A stretch of DNA of 10,000 bases, from NCBI RefSeq assembly GCF_036588685.1, contig NC_086380.1, positions 33,520,313 to 33,530,312 on the forward strand. Direction: 5' to 3'. This DNA is from Mytilus trossulus. Taxonomy: Eukaryota. Positions 2,303 through 10,000 of the stretch are shown here, piece after piece (the first letter of the stretch is position 1; the number at the start of each line of letters is the position of its first letter). Made by a program: the position numbers and the translations under genes. Under the pieces are notes generated by a model that did no database searches, was not told where the DNA came from, and saw nothing but the letters and a program-made list of their open reading frames with translations.

Positions 2303-2325
2303 TCAAAGTGATGGATATCACTCAT

Positions 2326-2351
2326 GGAAAGATTAGAACAGTAGTTTAAAT
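2326..2351. repeat. Left TIR-like end of the insertion: GGAAAGATTAGAACAGTAGTTTAAAT
   Basis: Reverse complement of 3582-3606 is GGAAAGATAAGAACTTGTTCTAAAT. About 19/25 positions match, including the identical leading GGAAAGAT and AGAAC. The left copy lies 23 bp inside the junction (2303-2325 = tcaaagtgatggatatcactcat, itself a small hairpin agtgat/atcact). Confidence 0.45.
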
Positions 2352-2420
2352 TATTTCATATTAAGGTATGTTGGGGGAAAATGAACATTTATAGAGCACT
2401 ATTGCTGAAAATTGCATTTA

Positions 2421-2626
2421 CAGAGGGGGGAAAGGACCTTTATCAGGACTCCGGGAGCGAGTGTTTTTTAAGCTCGGGATTTTGGGATTAACCCTTTCGG
2501 AATCCGGGAATCCTTTTTTTCTGATTTCGGGACGTCGGGATTTACTTTATTTAAATTCGGGACCTCAGGATTTCTTTTTTTTAAGTCCGGGATTTCGGGA
2601 CCAGGACCCCTACTATCCCCCCTCTT
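2421..2626. repeat. GC-richer ~200-bp module: ~30-bp minisatellite (about 5 copies, consensus roughly tTCGGGAynTCGGGATTT + T-run + aag) bracketed by a perfect 9-bp inverted repeat AGAGGGGGG / CCCCCCTCT
   Basis: Seen directly. TCGGGA(T/C) or TCCGGGA pairs at ~2449, 2473, 2497, 2526, 2556 and 2585, each followed by a T-run. Inverted repeat arms at 2423-2430... more precisely 2422-2430 and 2617-2625. MITE-like, but no target-site duplication identified. Confidence 0.6.
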
Positions 2627-3581
2627 AACAGCAGGTTTTTAGAAGGAAATAATGCTTTTCCATTGAGAGGATAAAATGAGCTCAAATTAAATAATATGAA
2701 TCTCTAAATTTTCACAATTTTATTTAAACTGCAGTTTATATCTAATCTAAATTAATATGTTGCCAGTTCAGAACATGTTTTAAAAAATCAAAAAAATGCA
2801 AAATCCGTCTAGTAAATGTTATAAACTATCCTTGTAAGACAAAAAAATAGACCAACAGCTAAAAGCTTTAAAGTGGCAACAAATATAATCTAAAAATGTT
2901 GTTTTGGGGCATTTTGTAAGTTGAAACAGAGGTTATATGGCATTGAAAATACTTGAATACCTTTTATATATTCATATTTATATTCATATTTCATTTTTTT
3001 TAAATCTTGTTACTCCATTAATCATTTAAATATAATCTTTCAGATATAATTTACAGAATCACTGTATGTAATGTAGATCAAAAGTAATTGGCAATAAATA
3101 AATCTATAATCCTTATGAATATCAAACATCTAATATACACATTTGTGTATTCAATTATGAGGTCAAATACTTGTGTATTAAGAATTATATCATATTTTGT
3201 GTGGTCTGTATAATTATGTAAGACTGAGGTTGATAGGTAATGTGGTCAATTTGATTGGCAGTTTAGGAGGTGGGGCATTGTAATTAAAGGTCCACCTTGT
3301 CTCTGATTGATTAGTGATAATGACAGTGGTCAATCATACTAGTGGAATCAATACCCATTTACCTAATCAAAATGTTTTTAAAAAAGCCTGCACATCAACA
3401 CACCTTAATTACATACAATCTTGAATGAACTGCTCCAATAATATACCCAGTTTTTTTTCAGTTTATTTGTGTAGTATGTGCATATTCATGAGAACAATAG
3501 GGAACTATATTTTAGTGTGAATACATTTAGTAACAGTAGCTAACCTGTCCTGTTGTTAGGGAGGGTGGTGCCTAAGTAAAG

Positions 3582-3606
3582 ATTTAGAACAAGTTCTTAT
3601 CTTTCC
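3582..3606. repeat. Right TIR-like end of the insertion (inverted partner of 2326-2351), abutting the resumption of the satellite at 3607
   Basis: See the partner feature. It ends exactly where the satellite sequence aaaaatgagggttctttttatatgg resumes. Confidence 0.45.
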
Positions 3607-5205
3607 AAAAATGAGGGTTCTTTTTATATGGCCTTCCAAATACCGTTTCGATCCCTAACATCACTGAAGAGTCATTTATTGTCGAAATCAGGATATGGTG
3701 TACTAAAAAAATATTGACACCGAATGTTTGTGGCACAACATACTGTCCACAAGTTAACAATTTTTTTTTCTGTGACGTATTAAATTTATATTAGGATCCA
3801 TTTTGTTACATCTTGTGATCAATTTTATTTGGCAATCGTCAATGGCAGTCAGCAGGGTTAAAGAACATCAGTTGTTCGACCTGTTAGTCAAATGCGTTTT
3901 GTTTAAATATACTTTTTCACTCTTTTGGTCTTTTGGAAAATGTTGTTTGTGCTGTTTTTAGACCCTTTTACAACGAAATTTGTTTTACATGCACACGTAT
4001 AAAAACTGCGGTTTTTATCCAACGCAGTCATAGGTTTGAACGTAGTTTTCAATTTAGACTCGTTTATATTTTTTGTTTGGGCATGTATCATATTTTCCCT
4101 CCGGTTTATATGGTCCGTTCATCCTATATATTGACTCTTAAAATTCAAGAGTTAATCTAAAAATGAGGGTACTTTCTCTAAAAATGAGGGTACTTTTTAT
4201 ATGGCCTTCCAAATACCGTTTCGATCCCTAACATCACTGAAGAGACATTTATTGTCGAAATCAGGATATGGTGTACTAAAGAAATATTGACACCGAATGT
4301 TTGTGGCACAACATACTGTCCACAAGTTAACAATTTTTTTTTCTGTGACGTATTAAATTTATATTAGGATCCATTTTGTTACATCTTGTGATCAATTTTA
4401 TTTGGCAATCGTCAATGGCAGTCAGCAGGGTTAAAGAACATCAGTTGTTCGACCTGTTAGTCAAATGCGTTTTGTTTAAATATACTTTTTCACTCTTTTG
4501 GTCTTTTGGAAAATGTTGTTTGTGCTGTTTTTAGACCCTTTTACAACGAAATTTGTTTTACATGCACACGTATAAAAACTGCGGTTTTTATCCAACGCAG
4601 TCATAGGTTTGAACGTAGTTTTCAATTTAGACTCGTTTATATTTTTTGTTTGGGCATGTATCATATTTTCCCTCCGGTTTATATGATCCGTTCATCCTAT
4701 ATATTGACTCTTAAAATTCAAGAGTTTAAAAATGAGGGTACTTTCTCTAAAAATGAGGGTACTTTTTATATGGCCTTCCAAATACCGTTTCGATCCCTAA
4801 CATCACTGAAGAGTCATTTATTGTCGAAATCAGGATATGGTGTACTAAAGAAATATTGACACCGAATGTTTGTGGCACAACATACTGTCCACAAGTTAAC
4901 AATTTTTTTTTCTGTGACGTATTAAATTTATATTAGGATCCATTTTGTTACATCTTGTGATCAATTTTATTTGGCAATCGTCAATGGCAGTCAGCAGGGT
5001 TAAAGAACATCAGTTGTTCGACCTGTTAGTCAAATGCGTTTTGTTTAAATATACTTTTTCACTCTTTTGGTCTTTTGGAAAATGTTGTTTGTGCTGTTTT
5101 TAGACCCTTTTACAACGAAATTTGTTTTACATGCACACGTATAAAAACTGCGGTTTTTATCCAACGCAGTCATAGGTTTGAACGTAGTTTTCAATTTAGA
5201 CTCGT
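3607..5205. repeat. Tandem satellite array 2: same monomer family. Two near-complete units (552 and 569 bp) plus a 478-bp truncated third unit
   Basis: Unit starts at 4159 and 4728. The first unit begins at the second 21-bp sub-repeat (monomer position 22). The unit 2/3 junction lacks 4 bp (gagttaatctaaaaatg -> gagtttaaaaatg). The array ends inside ...tttagactcgt at 5205. Confidence 0.95.
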
Positions 5206-5216
5206 ATATATATATA
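5206..5216. repeat. (AT)n microsatellite at the right edge of the satellite array
   Basis: atatatatata directly follows the truncated monomer. Confidence 0.8.
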
Positions 5217-5342
5217 CAACTCGTCTAAACATCAACCCAACAATGTTGTAGGGTTGTCACTGACTCAGGGGCCAATGATGGTGATACATGGCTGTGTACA
5301 TAATGTATATACAACTCGTATAAACATCAACCCAACAATGTT
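5211..5342. repeat. Pair of 37-bp direct repeats (tatatacaactcgt[c/a]taaacatcaacccaacaatgtt) at 5211-5247 and 5306-5342, 95 bp apart, 36/37 identical
   Basis: Seen directly. They flank a 58-bp unique spacer (gtagggttgtcactgactcaggggccaatgatggtgatacatggctgtgtacataatg). Confidence 0.85.
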
Positions 5343-5436
5343 AGTTCATATATAAGAAAAAGTTACGTAAAGTCGGTATGCTGGTAACATATAAGAAAAT
5401 TATTAAAAGATAATATTGAAACCATCGGATCGCATC

Positions 5437-5451
5437 AATATATATATATAT
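5437..5451. repeat. (AT)n microsatellite followed by (GT)3, immediately outside the left inverted-repeat copy
   Basis: atatatatatatat then gtgtgt. The right inverted-repeat copy is flanked by a related ggtgtatat string at 9312-9325 on the opposite strand. Confidence 0.75.
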
Positions 5452-5455
5452 GTGT

Positions 5456-5521
5456 GTTACAGTAAATAGGTGAAATTCGGAATTACATGTAATTAATAAA
5501 ATTTCGGAATTACCTGTAATT
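5456..5521 (-). repeat. Left copy of an ~66-68-bp inverted repeat pair (partner 9244-9311). Contains the perfect 14-bp palindrome AATTACATGTAATT and a dense set of GTAATT/AATTAC motifs
   Basis: The reverse complement of 9244-9311 aligns at about 56/68 (~82%). The first 40 bp are 36/40 identical (gttacagtaaata[g/c]gtgaaatt[c/a]ggaat...gtaatta) and the last 11 bp are 11/11 (tacctgtaatt). Confidence 0.75.
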
Positions 5522-6954
5522 CCCGATACACTTAGCAAATACAAGTAATTCCTGAATCTGTCTAGTTATAACCAGTAATTACTAGTTTTTAAATGATTTT
5601 TTTAAAGGTGATAAAACAATGTTATAATATGGCAAGCTGATGAAAAATAAGGATAAAACAGTGAACATTATCAAAAAGTGATCAACCTAAAATGTACCTT
5701 TTTGTTATATTAAAGGGTATTAGGCACTGTTAGCTATATAATGCAAAAAAATACATTATATGTTTTGTTGTTGTTCAATCAAATTATAATTCGATTTTTT
5801 TAAGATAAGTTTGGGTCATTTTTTTTTTCTCAAAATAAGCTAAGAAACATGGCTGATGAGTTATTCACTTGCAAATGAATAATTCAACCTCAATGTAACC
5901 GTTAAGCTGGAGCTGGGTTACACATGTATTCAGCTATTAAAAAGGATAGAATGACAAAATTGAAAGTAAAACAAAAGGGATGCACCATTTGGTTTACTGG
6001 GTCGATCCACAATAAGCTCATTCACATACATGTAAAGGTAAATACGACATTCGTTTGATGTGTTTGAGCTTTTGATGGTGCTATTTGATTAGGACTTATA
6101 GTTATAAATTGACTATGAGGGTCGGTTGAAATACAGATTTACGACAAGAGATGATTTCAGCATCCCAATTGTGACTTTTCCTTTTTTGTTTTTCAAATGG
6201 TGAAGTTGAAATCATCACTTCTTAAATTTTACGGACGCCATCACGAGTTGGCTGACCGTTATGGAATATCCGTTTCACATATGACACTGGATATGTTGCT
6301 TATGTCGTAGCTATAATCCATTTCTCTTTTCACGAAAGTGGGACAACCGAATTAGACTATGTACCGGCCCTGTAATAACACGAGTATTACGACGAGTGCC
6401 ATATGTGGAGCAGGATCTGTTTTCCCTTACGGAGCACCTTAGATCCCCCCCAGATTTTGGTTGGATTCGTGTTGCTTTTTCTTTACTTTTTCATGTTGTG
6501 TCTTGCAAGTCTTAACCTTTTTTCAGCCATGGTGTTGTCAGTTTATTTACGATCTATGAGTTTAGACTTGGAACAGGCACCTGCGTTATGTGCTGTGGTA
6601 AACCAGTTTTGCCGAATACACACACGCCATTTTTCCCACTCAATAATTTATATGTGTGATTAATGATGTAAAACCAATACAGCACTGAACATATTGTAAA
6701 ATTCCACCCTAAAGCACCAAACCTACCTAGAAATAATGATGTTCATGTGTGTCTGTCTGTTTGCAAGTCAGGACTAGTTTCTTCATAAGGATTGGTGGTT
6801 TCGATTTGTTATGCGACACTATCAATATGTCAATAGCCGCAGAACATCGAGTAAACATGTACATGTATTTTAATTCTTAATGGGTAATCATTTTTGCTAC
6901 AAAAAAGGTGTTGATAACTGCTATATGACATGTGCAGTACAATTTTTGTACAGG

Positions 6955-6978
6955 TATATGTGAGCCAAAATTTGTTCC
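6955..6978 (+). repeat. Left terminal inverted repeat of the 1.23-kb element
   Basis: See the element feature. Confidence 0.7.
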
Positions 6979-7030
6979 TGTGAAAAAAGTTCCAGTGGAA
7001 CTAATATGTTCTGGGAGAACTTTTTTCACA
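6979..7030. repeat. Hairpin with perfect 14-bp arms (tgtgaaaaaagttc ... gaacttttttcaca) and a 24-nt loop containing its own small palindrome gttccagtggaac, immediately inside the left TIR
   Basis: Seen directly. Arms at 6979-6992 and 7017-7030 are exact reverse complements. Confidence 0.85.
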
Positions 7031-7080
7031 GACAATTTCTATATAATTTGTTCCATCTATATGAAATAAGTTCCACACTT

Positions 7081-7244
7081 TACCTGGTGAAATAAGTTAT
7101 GGGTTGGTGAAATTTGTTCCTTACCTAGTGAAATAAGTTCCATGTTTGTGAGATTTGTTCCTTACCTGGTGAAATAAGTTCTGGATTTGTGAGATTTGTT
7201 CCTCATCTGGTGAAATAAGTACCTTGTCTATGAAATTTGTTCCG
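7081..7244 (+). repeat. Subterminal tandem repeat: 4 copies at an exact 41-bp period (tacctggtgaaataagttNNNNgtttgtga[a/g]atttgttcct)
   Basis: Units at 7081, 7122, 7163 and 7204. Each holds one GTGAAATAAGTTCC-type half and one GTGAnATTTGTTCC-type half. Degenerate copies continue outward to ~7046. Inverted copies of the same motifs fill 7999-8182. Confidence 0.85.
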
Positions 7245-7760
7245 CTGGTTAAACAAGTTATGTTACATACTGAGCACTTGTCATCAGTGAGTTTAAAGTC
7301 ATTATAAAAAACATGTTTTATAATTGATAAGGTAATAAATAAAAAGTGTAAACATCAAATTTGGATCATGTGGAGTAAAGCAAAAGTTAATAACATTATT
7401 CTCAATAAATAATACTAAAAATGACACTTATGAACCAGGAAAGAGTAGAATAAATAATAATAAAAGTCATTCCGAAAAAAAGAATTATAATAGTTAAAGA
7501 TGAATATTTGTACTTTTTCAAAATGGACAAAGTGACTGATCAATTATATTTCAAGACATAGAAAAACAAAAGACACTCTCTTTAAAAACTGTGAAATGAC
7601 AATAGCTAAGTACATGTATGATTAGAACACCCATAACAGATCAACAGGAAATTAAAGGAGGTGGAATACCACTTCAATGATAAAATAGATACAAATTATG
7701 AAACATTATGATTCTCATCGCTTTTATTTCTTATCTTCATCCTAAAGTCATGCCTTTAAT

Positions 7761-7828
7761 CAATCTCCCATGCAGAGTTCTCGGTCCTTGAGAGAGAGCA
7801 AGGACCGAGAACTTTGCATGGGAGATTG
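7761..7828. repeat. 68-bp near-perfect palindrome (30-bp arms, 29/30 complementary, 8-bp AG spacer agagagag), flanked by the 9-bp direct repeat GCCTTTAAT at 7752-7760 and 7829-7837
   Basis: Left arm caatctcccatgcagagttctcggtccttg. Right arm caaggaccgagaactttgcatgggagattg. One mismatch (C/T). The identical 9-mers abut both arm ends. Confidence 0.9.
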
Positions 7829-7998
7829 GCCTTTAATTGCAAATGTACCCCATGCAAGCACAGTACTTATTTCCTGTGAAACAGGTTTCATCAGAACATT
7901 TTCATTGATTTCTATAAAATACCTTCTTTCAAAACTAATATCACACAAACTTAATTCACTTTTTTTAAATTTTAATATTGGAACAAAACTCATACATT

Positions 7999-8182
7999 GT
8001 CATAGTGCTGTGATTTTTGTTCCGGAACTTATTTCACACTTGGTTAGAAAATTAGTTCTGGAACAAATTTTATAGTGCTGGAACATATTTTCTGTGACAT
8101 AAGTTCCGCTGGAACATATTTCCTATGAAATTTGTTCCAGAGGAACAAATGTCACGCCGGAACAAATTTTTTGTTACATATA
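7999..8182 (-). repeat. Right subterminal arm: inverted copies of the GTGAAATAAGTTCC / GTGAAATTTGTTCC motifs with repeated GTTCC-N(0-3)-GGAAC palindromes (gttccggaac, gttctggaac, gttccgctggaac, gttccagaggaac)
   Basis: Seen directly. ggaacttatttcac is the reverse complement of gtgaaataagttcc. The same palindromic motif class occurs in the left arm (gttccagtggaac 6990-7002, gttctgggagaac 7009-7021). Confidence 0.8.
8159..8182 (-). repeat. Right terminal inverted repeat of the 1.23-kb element
   Basis: See the element feature. Confidence 0.7.
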
Positions 8183-8881
8183 CAGGCTTAAGTTTGGAGG
8201 TCTTTAGAAAGTCATATAAAAGAGACACTTAAAGCCATCATTTTGTATAATTTTATTTATGAAGAATGTCACCTTCAAGTTGCTTATTCTTTAGTTTTCT
8301 ATGTCATGTGTCATTGGTTCTATTGTTTGTCTATTTGTCTTCTTTCATATTTAGCCAGGCGTTGTAAGTTTATGTTCAATTTATAAATTTGACTGTCCCT
8401 CTGGTATCTTTCGTCCCTATTTCAATGCAAATTCTAACAACAGAAGTCTTAGTTTAAAATAATTTGTCTGATGAATTAAATTATTTCATATGTCAAGTTA
8501 GTCTGATTGATATGCAAAGTATGCTTATTAATAGAGATTTTAATGTTTCCTGATGAATAATCATTATCTTTCAACCATATATGGCATAATAGAATGTCTA
8601 TCATCAAAAAGAACGAACGAGAATTCTCACAAATGTATTTCTCATATATTGATTATATGATTGTCTTGCATGTTGAAAACGATTTTTAGCGAGTTTCAAA
8701 AATTATAAAGCAACCATTTCCCTATTTCAATTCACAAACAAATTTATAAAACATACAGTCTTTGATTCCTTTACATATACGTAATCTCTACAATCCCTAC
8801 CCCGTTACTTTATTATTTGGTATATTGATGTATGTCTCAATTTTAATACAAATTAAAATATCAAGTTTGTGAATAGCTGTA

Positions 8882-8907
8882 AAAAAAATAATTAGTAATT
8901 ACAGGTA
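8882..8907 (+). repeat. Partial third copy of the inverted-repeat end motif: A8-run + AGTAATTACAGGTA (identical 14-mer to 9242-9255, also preceded by an A8 run)
   Basis: Seen directly. aaaaaaaataattagtaattacaggta versus aaaaaaaagtaattacaggta. Confidence 0.6.
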
Positions 8908-9243
8908 CAAAAAATTAATATGTTTGAAATTTTCAAAAAAGAATTTCTTCAATATCATGAAATATTGATAAATAAAGAAGGCAAATATGAAAAATTCCAT
9001 AATCTGGTTGCAGCAAAAATTAAATTAATTTCATAAATTTATTATACATCGTGCTATCATATTTCTATTCAGTTACATACATGTCATTATTACTATATAT
9101 ACATATTGTGCTCTAACAAGTTCTAACTTATCAATAAAATGCTATATACTAACGTTAACGAGGCCGGGATAAGGTACCGGTACTTCATGTATCTCTAACA
9201 AATGTAAAATTCAAATAAAATATTATAACACTTAAAAAAAAGT

Positions 9244-9311
9244 AATTACAGGTATTTACTGAATTGTGTAGTAATTACGTGTCATTCCTAATTTCACGTA
9301 TTTACTGTAAC
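9244..9311 (+). repeat. Right copy of the inverted repeat pair. The two copies bracket ~3.86 kb (5456-9311)
   Basis: See the partner feature. Either TIRs of a ~3.9-kb composite element, or two inverted copies of a short dispersed repeat. Confidence 0.75.
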
Positions 9312-9691
9312 ATATACACCTGTGAATCTGCAGTCACAACTCTAAGGAACTAATTACCTAAAAATCTGACACCTATAATTTCATTGTGTAATTTAAAAGA
9401 ATCAAGCTGTATTAAAGAAATGTGGTACACAAATGTTTCTTGTAAACCATTTAAAAGGAGTAGGTCCGGTAAGGACCGATTTTGGCCTCAAATTTTAGTT
9501 TCATCTGATGAAAGATTTTGACCACTTTTTAAACACTTAAGTTTCTATTTCAATGGTTTCGATTAATTTATGTGAAAGATTTAAACTTATTTCGTCATTA
9601 AAAACGATCCGATTCAAGCTCAAATACGGAAAATCTACTAAATATGCGGAAAAATGTCACTTTTCACATGGTTTTTGTCCAAAACGAAATT

Positions 9692-9788
9692 GGCCCCATC
9701 CGTGTTCATCCTCAACCTTTATATATGTTATGTATCATCATCAAATACAACTTCCATTTCAATATTTTGGATGAACACGAATGTGGCC
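9692..9788. repeat. Inverted repeat with 20-bp arms (ggccccatccgtgttcatcc / ggatgaacacgaatgtggcc, 18/20) separated by a 57-bp AT-rich loop
   Basis: Seen directly. Arms at 9692-9711 and 9769-9788. Confidence 0.7.
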
Positions 9789-10000
9789 ACTTTCTTTATA
9801 CACGGAAACCGTCTAAAATTTAAGTAAAATGCTGAAATTGTTACGATTTCAGTAATTTAGCATGACTTTATGGTGCTAGTACCCAATATATGTGCATTGT
9901 ATTTTCAAAAACAGTCCATATTTATGTAGCAGAACCATTTTACTATCCAATAAATAACTAAAAGTTTACATTTTAACAATTTTGTAAAACTGCCATATTT

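Follow-up and report, generated by a model that had tools for sequence, protein, structure and literature searches.

The window (the whole stretch of DNA analysed, 10,000 nucleotides) contains a pair of inverted repeats facing each other across almost 3.9 kb (Table 1). A repeat search returned two arms of 44 nt that are 89% complementary (5455-5498 and 9269-9312), and gapped alignment and BLAST gave 82.6% identity over 69 nt (5455-5521 and 9244-9312; E = 1.6e-13). Local alignment of the left part with the reverse-complemented right part reached a top score of 79, against 28.9 ± 3.0 (maximum 41) for 200 first-order Markov shuffles, which bears out the inverted pair of about 82% identity put forward in the original prediction. 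Direct reading likewise recovered the 36/40 identity claimed for the first 40 bp, the identical final 11 bp, the start GTTACAGTAAATA common to both copies and, at 8881-8907, a piece composed of A8 and AGTAATTACAGGTA. The symmetry runs one base further on each side than first noted (T5455 and A9312). TA/GT runs had been claimed on both flanks; the left one is present, as (TA)6(TG)2-3 at 5439-5456, but the right flank offers merely ATATACAC at 9312-9319. The region as a whole is a repeat-rich mosaic adjoining a satellite array.

Table 1. Features between positions 5439 and 9319 of the window, with the blocks collinear with the related element L005.
Feature	Position	Strand	Basis
Left-flank microsatellite (TA)6(TG)2	5439-5454	.	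Direct reading
TG where the putative target-site duplication would have TA	5453-5454	.	Offsets tabulated
Left terminal inverted repeat, begins TGTTACAGTAAATA, four dyads	5455-5592	+	Alignments, dyad search
Dyads in left terminal repeat, spacing 27-30 bp	5479-5496, 5506-5523, 5535-5552, 5565-5582		Dyad search
Collinear block, left-type end (L005 1-72)	5531-5602		
Two internal blocks common to L005: 5820-5895 (L005 581-655, 80%) and 5905-5942 (L005 690-727, 87%)	5820-5942	+	Alignment
Decayed fragment of a dispersed ORF family (…MVKLKSSLLKFYGRHHELADRYGISVSHM…)	6110-6570	+	Translation, P0001 and L002 matches
TACAGG to the left of the nested element (6-bp direct repeat)	6949-6954	.	Direct reading
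Nested foldback-like element	6955-8180	.	Repeat searches
TACAGG to the right of the nested element (6-bp direct repeat)	8181-8186	.	Direct reading
Right subterminal block of the outer element (L005 1149-1403), 70-71% to L001/L005 over ~270 nt	8655-8902	+	Alignment
Innermost dyad remnant of right terminal repeat (AGTAATTACAGGTA)	8894-8907	-	Alignment
333-bp extra segment splitting right terminal repeat; relatives have ~65 bp of dyads there	8908-9240	.	
Right terminal inverted repeat, outer part, ends …TATTTACTGTAACA, 94% to L001	9241-9312	-	
Collinear block, right-type end (L005 1453-1530), 94%	9241-9318		
Dyads in outer right terminal repeat	9242-9259, 9271-9288		Dyad search
Right flank TATACAC; TA at 9313-9314 is the putative target-site duplication	9313-9319	.	

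The terminal repeat that forms each end is about 140 bp long and bears four palindromic GTAATTAC-NN-GTAATTAC dyads some 29 bp apart. With up to three mismatches allowed, the dyad motif occurs eight times in the window against 0.17 expected, always within 5479-5592 or 9242-9305. It occurs four times, at a spacing of exactly 29 bp, in a metagenome contig (L001) that carries the window's terminus among unrelated flanks. The left terminal repeat reaches to about 5590 rather than 5521, matching the L001 end at 77% over 138 nt. On the right, the partial third copy at 8882-8907, once read as support for a dispersed family, is instead the innermost dyad of the terminal repeat; it looks detached because a 333-bp segment, missing from the relative, separates it from the remainder. 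The dyads are probably transposase-binding sites. The window's two ends have drifted into a range of 83-90% identity. Across the first 44 columns, L001 matches the left end at 41/42 and the right end at 41/44, and the two window ends match each other at 38/42; here L001 looks like the ancestor of both.

Relatives were found by a metagenome scan followed by a look-up via a flanking ORF (P0002), which led to 10 contigs representing one locus; their sources are metagenomes of the Baltic Sea and other waters as well as sequencing-run assemblies, and the family comparison rests on this one independent related locus. Homology between it and the window stops at 9312-9318. The related element (L005) is about 1.6 kb long, has both ends and shares with the window five collinear blocks of matching order and orientation. 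Its left end is closer to the window's left end than to its own right end, and it has nothing in common with the window's centre (5942-8655). Seven of the 10 contigs carry the element and three lack it: the locus has filled and unfilled alleles of an insertion polymorphism, and among individuals sampled in the Baltic Sea some still carry the shorter relative while others lack it. The family has thus moved recently, being polymorphic in wild aquatic samples. The unfilled alleles lack the element exactly at the junction and come in two forms, GCTGTT(TA)3CATG (L010 and L012) and GCTGTTTTATG (L004). A comparison of right-flank SNPs for the ancestral unfilled allele did not discriminate between them, the first 316 nt being invariant. 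The cluster members P0003 and P0005 led to one contig that begins exactly at the junction (L013) and another with unrelated upstream sequence (L014); predicted ORFs across the left junction of this locus measure 35-38 aa, below gene-calling length. Terminal-repeat patterns found no match in viral contigs or in bacterial and archaeal genomes, and a literature search for the terminal sequences returned no relevant match and one unrelated primer match.

As the relative has both ends, is collinear in five blocks and exists as presence/absence alleles, we regard positions 5455-9312 (3,858 bp) as very probably one unit, an old class II (cut-and-paste) DNA transposon that is non-autonomous and bounded by terminal inverted repeats (TIRs), in a eukaryotic host that is likely to be a bivalve. 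These same observations support the earlier proposal of TIRs belonging to a composite non-autonomous element of about 3.9 kb. Four features of such elements were found: inverted ends, a copy at an unrelated locus, filled and unfilled alleles at that locus, and no transposase; the target-site duplication is putative. Its length has been swelled by some 2.7 kb of unrelated central sequence, which includes the 1.23-kb foldback, and by 333 bp inside the right end. With drifted ends, a split right end and a filled centre, the window copy is a fossil; the 3.9-kb feature is real but an ordinary transposon.

The insertion in its centre has ends TATATGTGAGCC… and …TTGTTACATA that form 25-nt terminal inverted repeats of 84% identity. 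Four 41-bp subterminal tandem repeats lie on the left (7080-7243), inverted 31-bp repeats on the right (8077-8138) and a 30-nt palindrome in the middle (7761-7828). Tandem subrepeats within inverted ends, an interior with little unique coding sequence and a flanking direct duplication, the 6-bp TACAGG on both sides, make this nested 1.23-kb element a textbook foldback-like structure.

It had also been stated that the interior holds no ORF of 60 aa or more. An ATG ORF of 86 aa is found at 6403-6663, the longest inside the element (the whole 10 kb has only two of at least 90 aa), but the conclusion that the element is non-autonomous stands, since no frame of positions 5200-10000 matches a Pfam family. 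Neither do the six frames of L005, and six-frame Pfam comparison found no transposase gene within either element. Rfam and tRNA scans gave no match, and a 67-aa ORF that crosses the left terminal repeat, used as a protein query for spurious ORFs of other copies, returned no candidate. The ORF fragment at 6110-6570 resembles P0001 (E = 2.1e-9, 77% identity) and contig L002, which matches 6191-6329 at 87%; this fragment does not belong to the transposon family. A protein search with its KFYGRHHELADRYG fragment, in collections that barely cover the host, yielded P0001 as sole candidate and led to a single 543-bp contig; the ORF family itself is presumably abundant in bivalve genomes.

The target-site duplication may be TA, which would make the element Tc1/mariner-like, a tentative assignment that we favor somewhat less than evenly. 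The window's right junction is AACA|TA|TACACC and that of the polymorphic locus AACA|TA|TACATG, with an identical TACA after the TA, and the unfilled GCTGTT(TA)3CATG equals left flank plus TA plus TACATG. The left junction in the window has TG where TA is expected, one transition away, and the window copy has no intact duplication; the observable junction positions are TA in two cases out of three and TG in the third. At the polymorphic locus the junction evidence consists of the right junction and the unfilled alleles, duplication length and exact termini being putative, and the TA model would predict GCTGTTTATA|TGTTACAG as its left junction. For the window copy, tabulated offsets led us to reject TTAA and TWA (3 bp) duplications. 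Also rejected for this copy were duplications of 4 bp (TGTG versus TATA), 6 bp (3/6), 8 bp (ATATGTGT versus ATATACAC, 4/8) and 9 bp (0-1 matches of 9 at symmetric offsets). Tc1-style TA|CAGT boundaries fail as well: TGTTA is conserved in all copies and missing from the unfilled site. On the right side, the flanks of both independent insertions have 6-7 nt in common (ATATACA), and these bases could be part of the element instead of the target.

This last point touches on the possibility, which we consider unlikely but of some weight, that we are dealing with one transposon having other boundaries or belonging to another superfamily. In one version (a), the ends would be GTTAC…GTAAC, with an 8-9-bp duplication (ATATACAY-type; hAT, MULE, Merlin) or with none and site-specific insertion before ATATACA. 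In the other (b), the outer GTATAT/ATATAC would lie inside the element; L004 would then be the ancestral unfilled site, with excision footprints in L010 and L012. It is true that ATATACA directly follows GTAAC in the right flanks of both window and related locus, that ATATACAT and ATATACAC both fit nTnnnnAn, the target pattern of hAT elements, and that two unfilled alleles exist; moreover, the nested foldback, bounded by TACAGG, starts TATATGT…, resembling the outer junction TATATGTTACAG. Against these stand the low agreement of the window's left flank at 8 and 6 bp and, for version (b), a left copy reading ATGTGT where GTATAT is expected. The hAT superfamily itself was rejected, given the 4/8 agreement and a terminus, (T)GTTAC, that misfits YARNG. 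As to footprints, at least two samples contain the ATATAC unfilled allele, on haplotypes that differ slightly (two extra SNPs in L012), which is easier to understand as an old unfilled site.

A single transposon would not be needed at all if a dispersed repeat had landed twice independently, as whole copies or fragments that happen to face each other about 3.9 kb apart. The missing intact duplication, the repeat-rich mosaic beside a satellite array and a centre (5942-8655) without sequence in common with the relative would all suit this explanation, which we nevertheless judge improbable: left-type and right-type ends occur in the order and orientation of L005, and the blocks within 5820-5942 and the right subterminal block are collinear with it. 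Unrelated ends lying correctly oriented within 4 kb would be improbable at any plausible copy number. Nor is there support for two members of a short dispersed 66-mer, as the original prediction had alternatively suggested: the right-end repeat is accompanied by conserved subterminal sequence of about 250 bp. That the pair arose by local inverted segmental duplication is hardly credible. In its favor, just two copies lie within the window itself, but the terminal repeat and its subterminal sequence recur at an unrelated locus with filled and unfilled alleles; the 66-mer, whose confinement to its two sites was to count against the transposon, occurs elsewhere.

Taken as one transposon, the element invites analogies with the Tc1/mariner group (IS630-Tc1-mariner; IR/DR, Sleeping Beauty-like Tc1 and Stowaway-like elements), among the richest DNA-transposon superfamilies in bivalves (PMC10294476). 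Points of likeness are the long TIRs with repeated binding-site-like motifs, the TA that directly adjoins the right end and is seen at the polymorphic locus too, insertion into alternating pyrimidine-purine DNA rich in TA, the TACAGT 3 nt inside the window element's terminus and, as in non-autonomous members, a lack of coding capacity that implies mobilisation in trans. However, the termini read TGTTACAG instead of beginning at CAGT, the window's left TA is not preserved, and palindromic dyads, four in tandem and phased at 29 bp, stand where the Tc1 IR/DR has two direct repeats about 170 bp apart. Membership is putative here, no DD(E/D) transposase having been found. Ends of about 140 bp built from a tandem unit of about 29 bp recall the long TIRs of Drosophila FB and of MULE-like elements; these make 9-10-bp duplications, whereas none was seen for the outer element, which in addition has a long unique interior. 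Bivalve MITEs are also non-autonomous, defined solely by TIRs and polymorphic for insertion in natural populations, but they are usually under ~800 bp, and the MITE class was rejected on length (3,858 bp in the window, ~1.6 kb in L005). Such MITEs are abundant and mostly unclassified, and many bivalve DNA transposons are likewise unclassified (PMC10294476). Helitrons and Helentrons were rejected too: the ends are symmetric, ~140 bp long and dyad-built, without TC/CTRR ends or a conserved 3' hairpin. Those elements have no symmetric TIRs, showing instead 5'-TC…CTRR-3' or an asymmetric subterminal inverted repeat with a 3' hairpin, and they insert at A^T or T^T without duplication.

One could envision that an autonomous relative elsewhere in the genome encodes a transposase acting in trans. 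This enzyme would bind the dyads as a dimer or multimer, synapse both ends and cut at TGTTACAG…CTGTAACA, and the excised element would reinsert into TA-rich alternating pyrimidine-purine DNA. It is tempting, if decidedly speculative, to see here an uncatalogued DNA-transposon lineage, still active in Baltic mussels and with a transposase perhaps outside the described superfamilies. Its marks would be four phased palindromic dyads with a TAATTA core and a strongly sequence-specific target, T[G/T]TA|TA|TACA or directly before ATATACA; we think this reading as a whole quite unlikely.

For annotation, the value of these findings is that some 3.9 kb are explained as one decayed transposon with nested insertions, and that the puzzle of the "third copy" is gone. 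The phased dyads provide a candidate binding site with which the autonomous partner might be tracked down in bivalve genomes and classified.

The inverted repeat pair forms the ends of one ordinary DNA transposon, a non-autonomous fossil that has terminal inverted repeats (TIRs) and contains nested insertions. A repeat search of the window returned 44-nt arms at 5455-5498 and 9269-9312 that are 89% complementary; with two small gaps the pair reaches 5455-5521 and 9244-9312 (82.6% over 69 nt, E = 1.6e-13). Aligned locally, the left and right sides score 79 at best, as against 28.9 ± 3.0 (maximum 41) in 200 composition-preserving shuffles. The inverted pair of the original prediction is thus borne out, and its details were correct: 36/40 positions agree, the last 11 nt are the same and GTTACAGTAAATA stands at the outer end of both copies; the A8 + AGTAATTACAGGTA piece is present at 8881-8907. 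The dinucleotide runs thought to flank both sides exist on the left, as a (TA)6(TG)n microsatellite, the right side having only ATATACAC. The interior, supposed to lack any ORF of at least 60 aa, contains an 86-aa ATG ORF at 6403-6663. No reading frame gave a Pfam match.

A single scan of metagenomes, using the conserved terminus as query, recovered contig L001, whose flank is unrelated to that of the window element. Identity to 9241-9318 is 94% over its terminal 78 nt, and to 8655-8902 it is 71% over the next ~255 nt; its terminal 138 nt match 5455-5590 at 77%. Over the first 44 columns, L001 agrees with the left end at 41/42 positions and with the right end at 41/44, the two window ends agreeing with each other at 38/42; from these comparisons both ends appear to have diverged from an L001-like ancestor. 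L005, another contig of the L001 locus, reaches across the element, which is ~1.6 kb long there once ~75 missing terminal bases are added. Five blocks of L005 are collinear with the window (see table), and its first 72 nt match the inner left end of the window element better than they match its own right end. This collinearity identifies the two inverted copies as the opposite termini, left and right, of a single member of the family, as had been proposed for a composite element. It contradicts the reading that two unrelated end fragments face each other by chance, as does the existence of distinct left-type and right-type ends. An inverted segmental duplication is likewise contradicted, because an unrelated, polymorphic locus carries the family. 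Between 5942 and 8655 the window has nothing in common with L005, and neither element has recognisable coding capacity (Pfam, six frames). Among known classes, Helitrons and Helentrons do not fit the symmetric, dyad-built ends of ~140 bp; hAT was rejected on its terminus and on an 8-bp duplication test (4/8), and MITE on length.

Coordinates of features in the window and in related metagenomic contigs
Feature	Window position	Contig position	Identity	Description
Collinear block	5531-5602	L005 1-72	82%	
Collinear block	5820-5895	L005 581-655	80%	
Collinear block	5905-5942	L005 690-727	87%	
Collinear block	8655-8902	L005 1149-1403	70%	
Collinear block	9241-9318	L005 1453-1530	94%	
Dispersed ORF family fragment	~6110-6570			Decayed; translation …KFYGRHHELADRYGISVSHM…
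Nested foldback-like element	6955-8180			25-nt TIRs; 41-bp and inverted 31-bp subterminal repeats; central 30-nt palindrome
Satellite array	1-2302 and 3591-5203		99-100%	Left half of window; seven ~570-bp monomers
Satellite interruption	~2303-3590			~1.3 kb; 30-bp tandem repeat rich in TTCGGGA at 2526-2600
(TA)nTACAACTCGTCTAAACATCAACCCAACAATGTT repeat, 40-44 nt	5204-5247 and 5303-5347			Direct orientation, 95 bp apart, at satellite edge
Start of second insert		L003 1002-1045, L005 2079-2122, L007 1057-1100, L010 860-903, L011 644-687		

The ends are built from a palindromic dyad, GTAATTAC-NN-GTAATTAC. Allowing up to three mismatches, it occurs eight times in the window, in every case within 5479-5592 or 9242-9305; shuffled sequences give 0.17 on average, and 0/200 reached eight. 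Four successive dyads at 27-30-bp intervals make up the left end, where TRF detected the same 27-bp period, and L001 carries four at exactly 29-bp spacing. Such phasing of palindromic dyads in the ends is mildly notable. Since the window has 333 bases more than L001 (8908-9240) between the second and last dyads of the right end, the supposed partial third copy at 8882-8907 is not a separate element; it belongs to the right terminal repeat as its innermost dyad.

A 93-aa ORF beginning right at the L001 junction (P0002) served as a search handle and yielded ten contigs of that same locus. They come from aquatic metagenomes and sequencing-run assemblies, for the most part from metagenomes of Baltic Sea water (data set PRJEB22997). 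In seven of the ten the element abuts the flank (…CTGTAACATATAC/ATGTTACTACAG, the slash marking the junction); three lack it (L010 and L012, …GCTGTTTATATAC/ATG…; L004, …GCTGTTTT/ATG…). L013 starts at the junction itself, which would be expected had one run contained both alleles. This presence/absence polymorphism is the signature of a mobile element. The two unfilled alleles differ (GCTGTTTTATG and GCTGTTTATATACATG, at L004 2905-2916 and at L010 255-266 and L012 307-318), and one of them may have arisen by excision, as a footprint, or by an independent indel. With no variation in the first 316 nt of the flank, SNPs there do not pick the ancestral unfilled allele. In L008 (1-78) a left-type inner terminal repeat follows the first ~33 shared nt at the same right junction; the contig is either an allele inverted by recombination between the element's terminal repeats or an assembly chimera.

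No perfect target-site duplication appears in the window at any offset tabulated. Judged from the junction sequences, an element running TGTTACAG…CTGTAACA (5455-9312) with a putative TA duplication would fit all observations. The right junction is AACA/TA/TACACC in the window and AACA/TA/TACATG at the polymorphic locus, where the unfilled allele GCTGTT(TA)3CATG equals a left flank GCTGTTTA + TA + TACATG. The left position, 5453-5454, is TG, one transition from TA, within the (TA)6(TG)n microsatellite. A TA duplication, the TA-rich, near-palindromic target (TTTA/TA/TACA) and the length of the ends, with their several binding-site-like repeats, suggest Tc1/mariner, among the richest DNA-transposon groups of bivalves (PMC10294476). 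This assignment is only a lead, because the left junction of the polymorphic locus was not recovered, no transposase was found, ATATACA is shared by the two independent right flanks and there are two different unfilled alleles. The last two points would also suit the same single element with another boundary or superfamily, which we consider a less likely but serious alternative: the shared ATATACA could be a longer, ATATACAY-type duplication, reflect site-specific insertion, or place ATATAC within the element. The left junction of the polymorphic locus would read GCTGTTTATA/TGTTACAG under a TA duplication, GCTGTTTATATACAT/GTTACAG under an 8-bp one, and …TTTT(AT)/GTATATGTTACAG if ATATAC belongs to the element.

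The window copy has been interrupted by other repeats. The decayed ORF fragment is 77% identical to P0001, a member of the dispersed family (E = 2e-9), and 87% identical to contig L002 at the DNA level; ORFs of this type are very abundant in bivalve genomes. The stretch 8260-8420 translates to …FYVMCHWFYCLSICLLSYLARRCKFMFNL*I*LSLWYLSSLF, which, read by eye, appears to resemble the C-terminal part of that family. The foldback-like element is indeed nested within the outer one, as predicted, and has its own flanking repeat, a perfect 6-bp TACAGG (6949-6954 and 8181-8186). Its termini (TATATGTGAG… and TATGTAACAA…) resemble the outer-element junction TATATGTTACAG. Several repeat families of this genome adjoin TGTATATA-type Py-Pu runs.

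The surrounding DNA is eukaryotic, repeat-rich and non-coding, and prokaryotic interpretations are out of place: with 32% G+C the window is AT-rich, no more than two ORFs in its 10 kb reach 90 aa, and tRNA and Rfam scans gave no matches. Satellite monomers alternate between 573 and 569 bp in a 1,142-bp higher-order unit, each opened by a 21-bp tandem duplication, TCTAAAAATGAGGGTACTTTC; none of the fetched loci matched the monomer. The satellite interruption, with 22-nt inverted ends (2318-2339 and 3593-3614, 82%), is probably another inserted element. Just right of the transposon, an inverted repeat at 9662-9818 (63-nt arms, 71% complementary, 31-nt spacer) could represent a small hairpin element of MITE-like type. 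The (TA)nTACAACTCGTCTAAACATCAACCCAACAATGTT repeat shares 95-97% identity with the beginning of a second insert, which lies ~550 bp downstream in the metagenomic locus and is itself polymorphic (absent from L004, L006, L008 and L009). It points to a further young repeat family, and the identity argues that one genome, or two very closely related ones, gave rise to the window and the metagenomic contigs. A Baltic bivalve such as Mytilus is the presumed host.

The inverted ends, the phased dyads confined to them, the mobile sister copy and the lack of coding capacity suggest that the element would be mobilised in trans by a DDE-type transposase. The enzyme would bind the dyads as putative sites and pair the ends; excision would be followed by integration into DNA that is TA-rich and alternates Py with Pu. 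The copy in the window has very probably lost its mobility, as its ends are 83-90% identical, a 333-bp segment divides its right end and other repeats are nested in its interior. The recent mobility of its sister copy is mildly notable.
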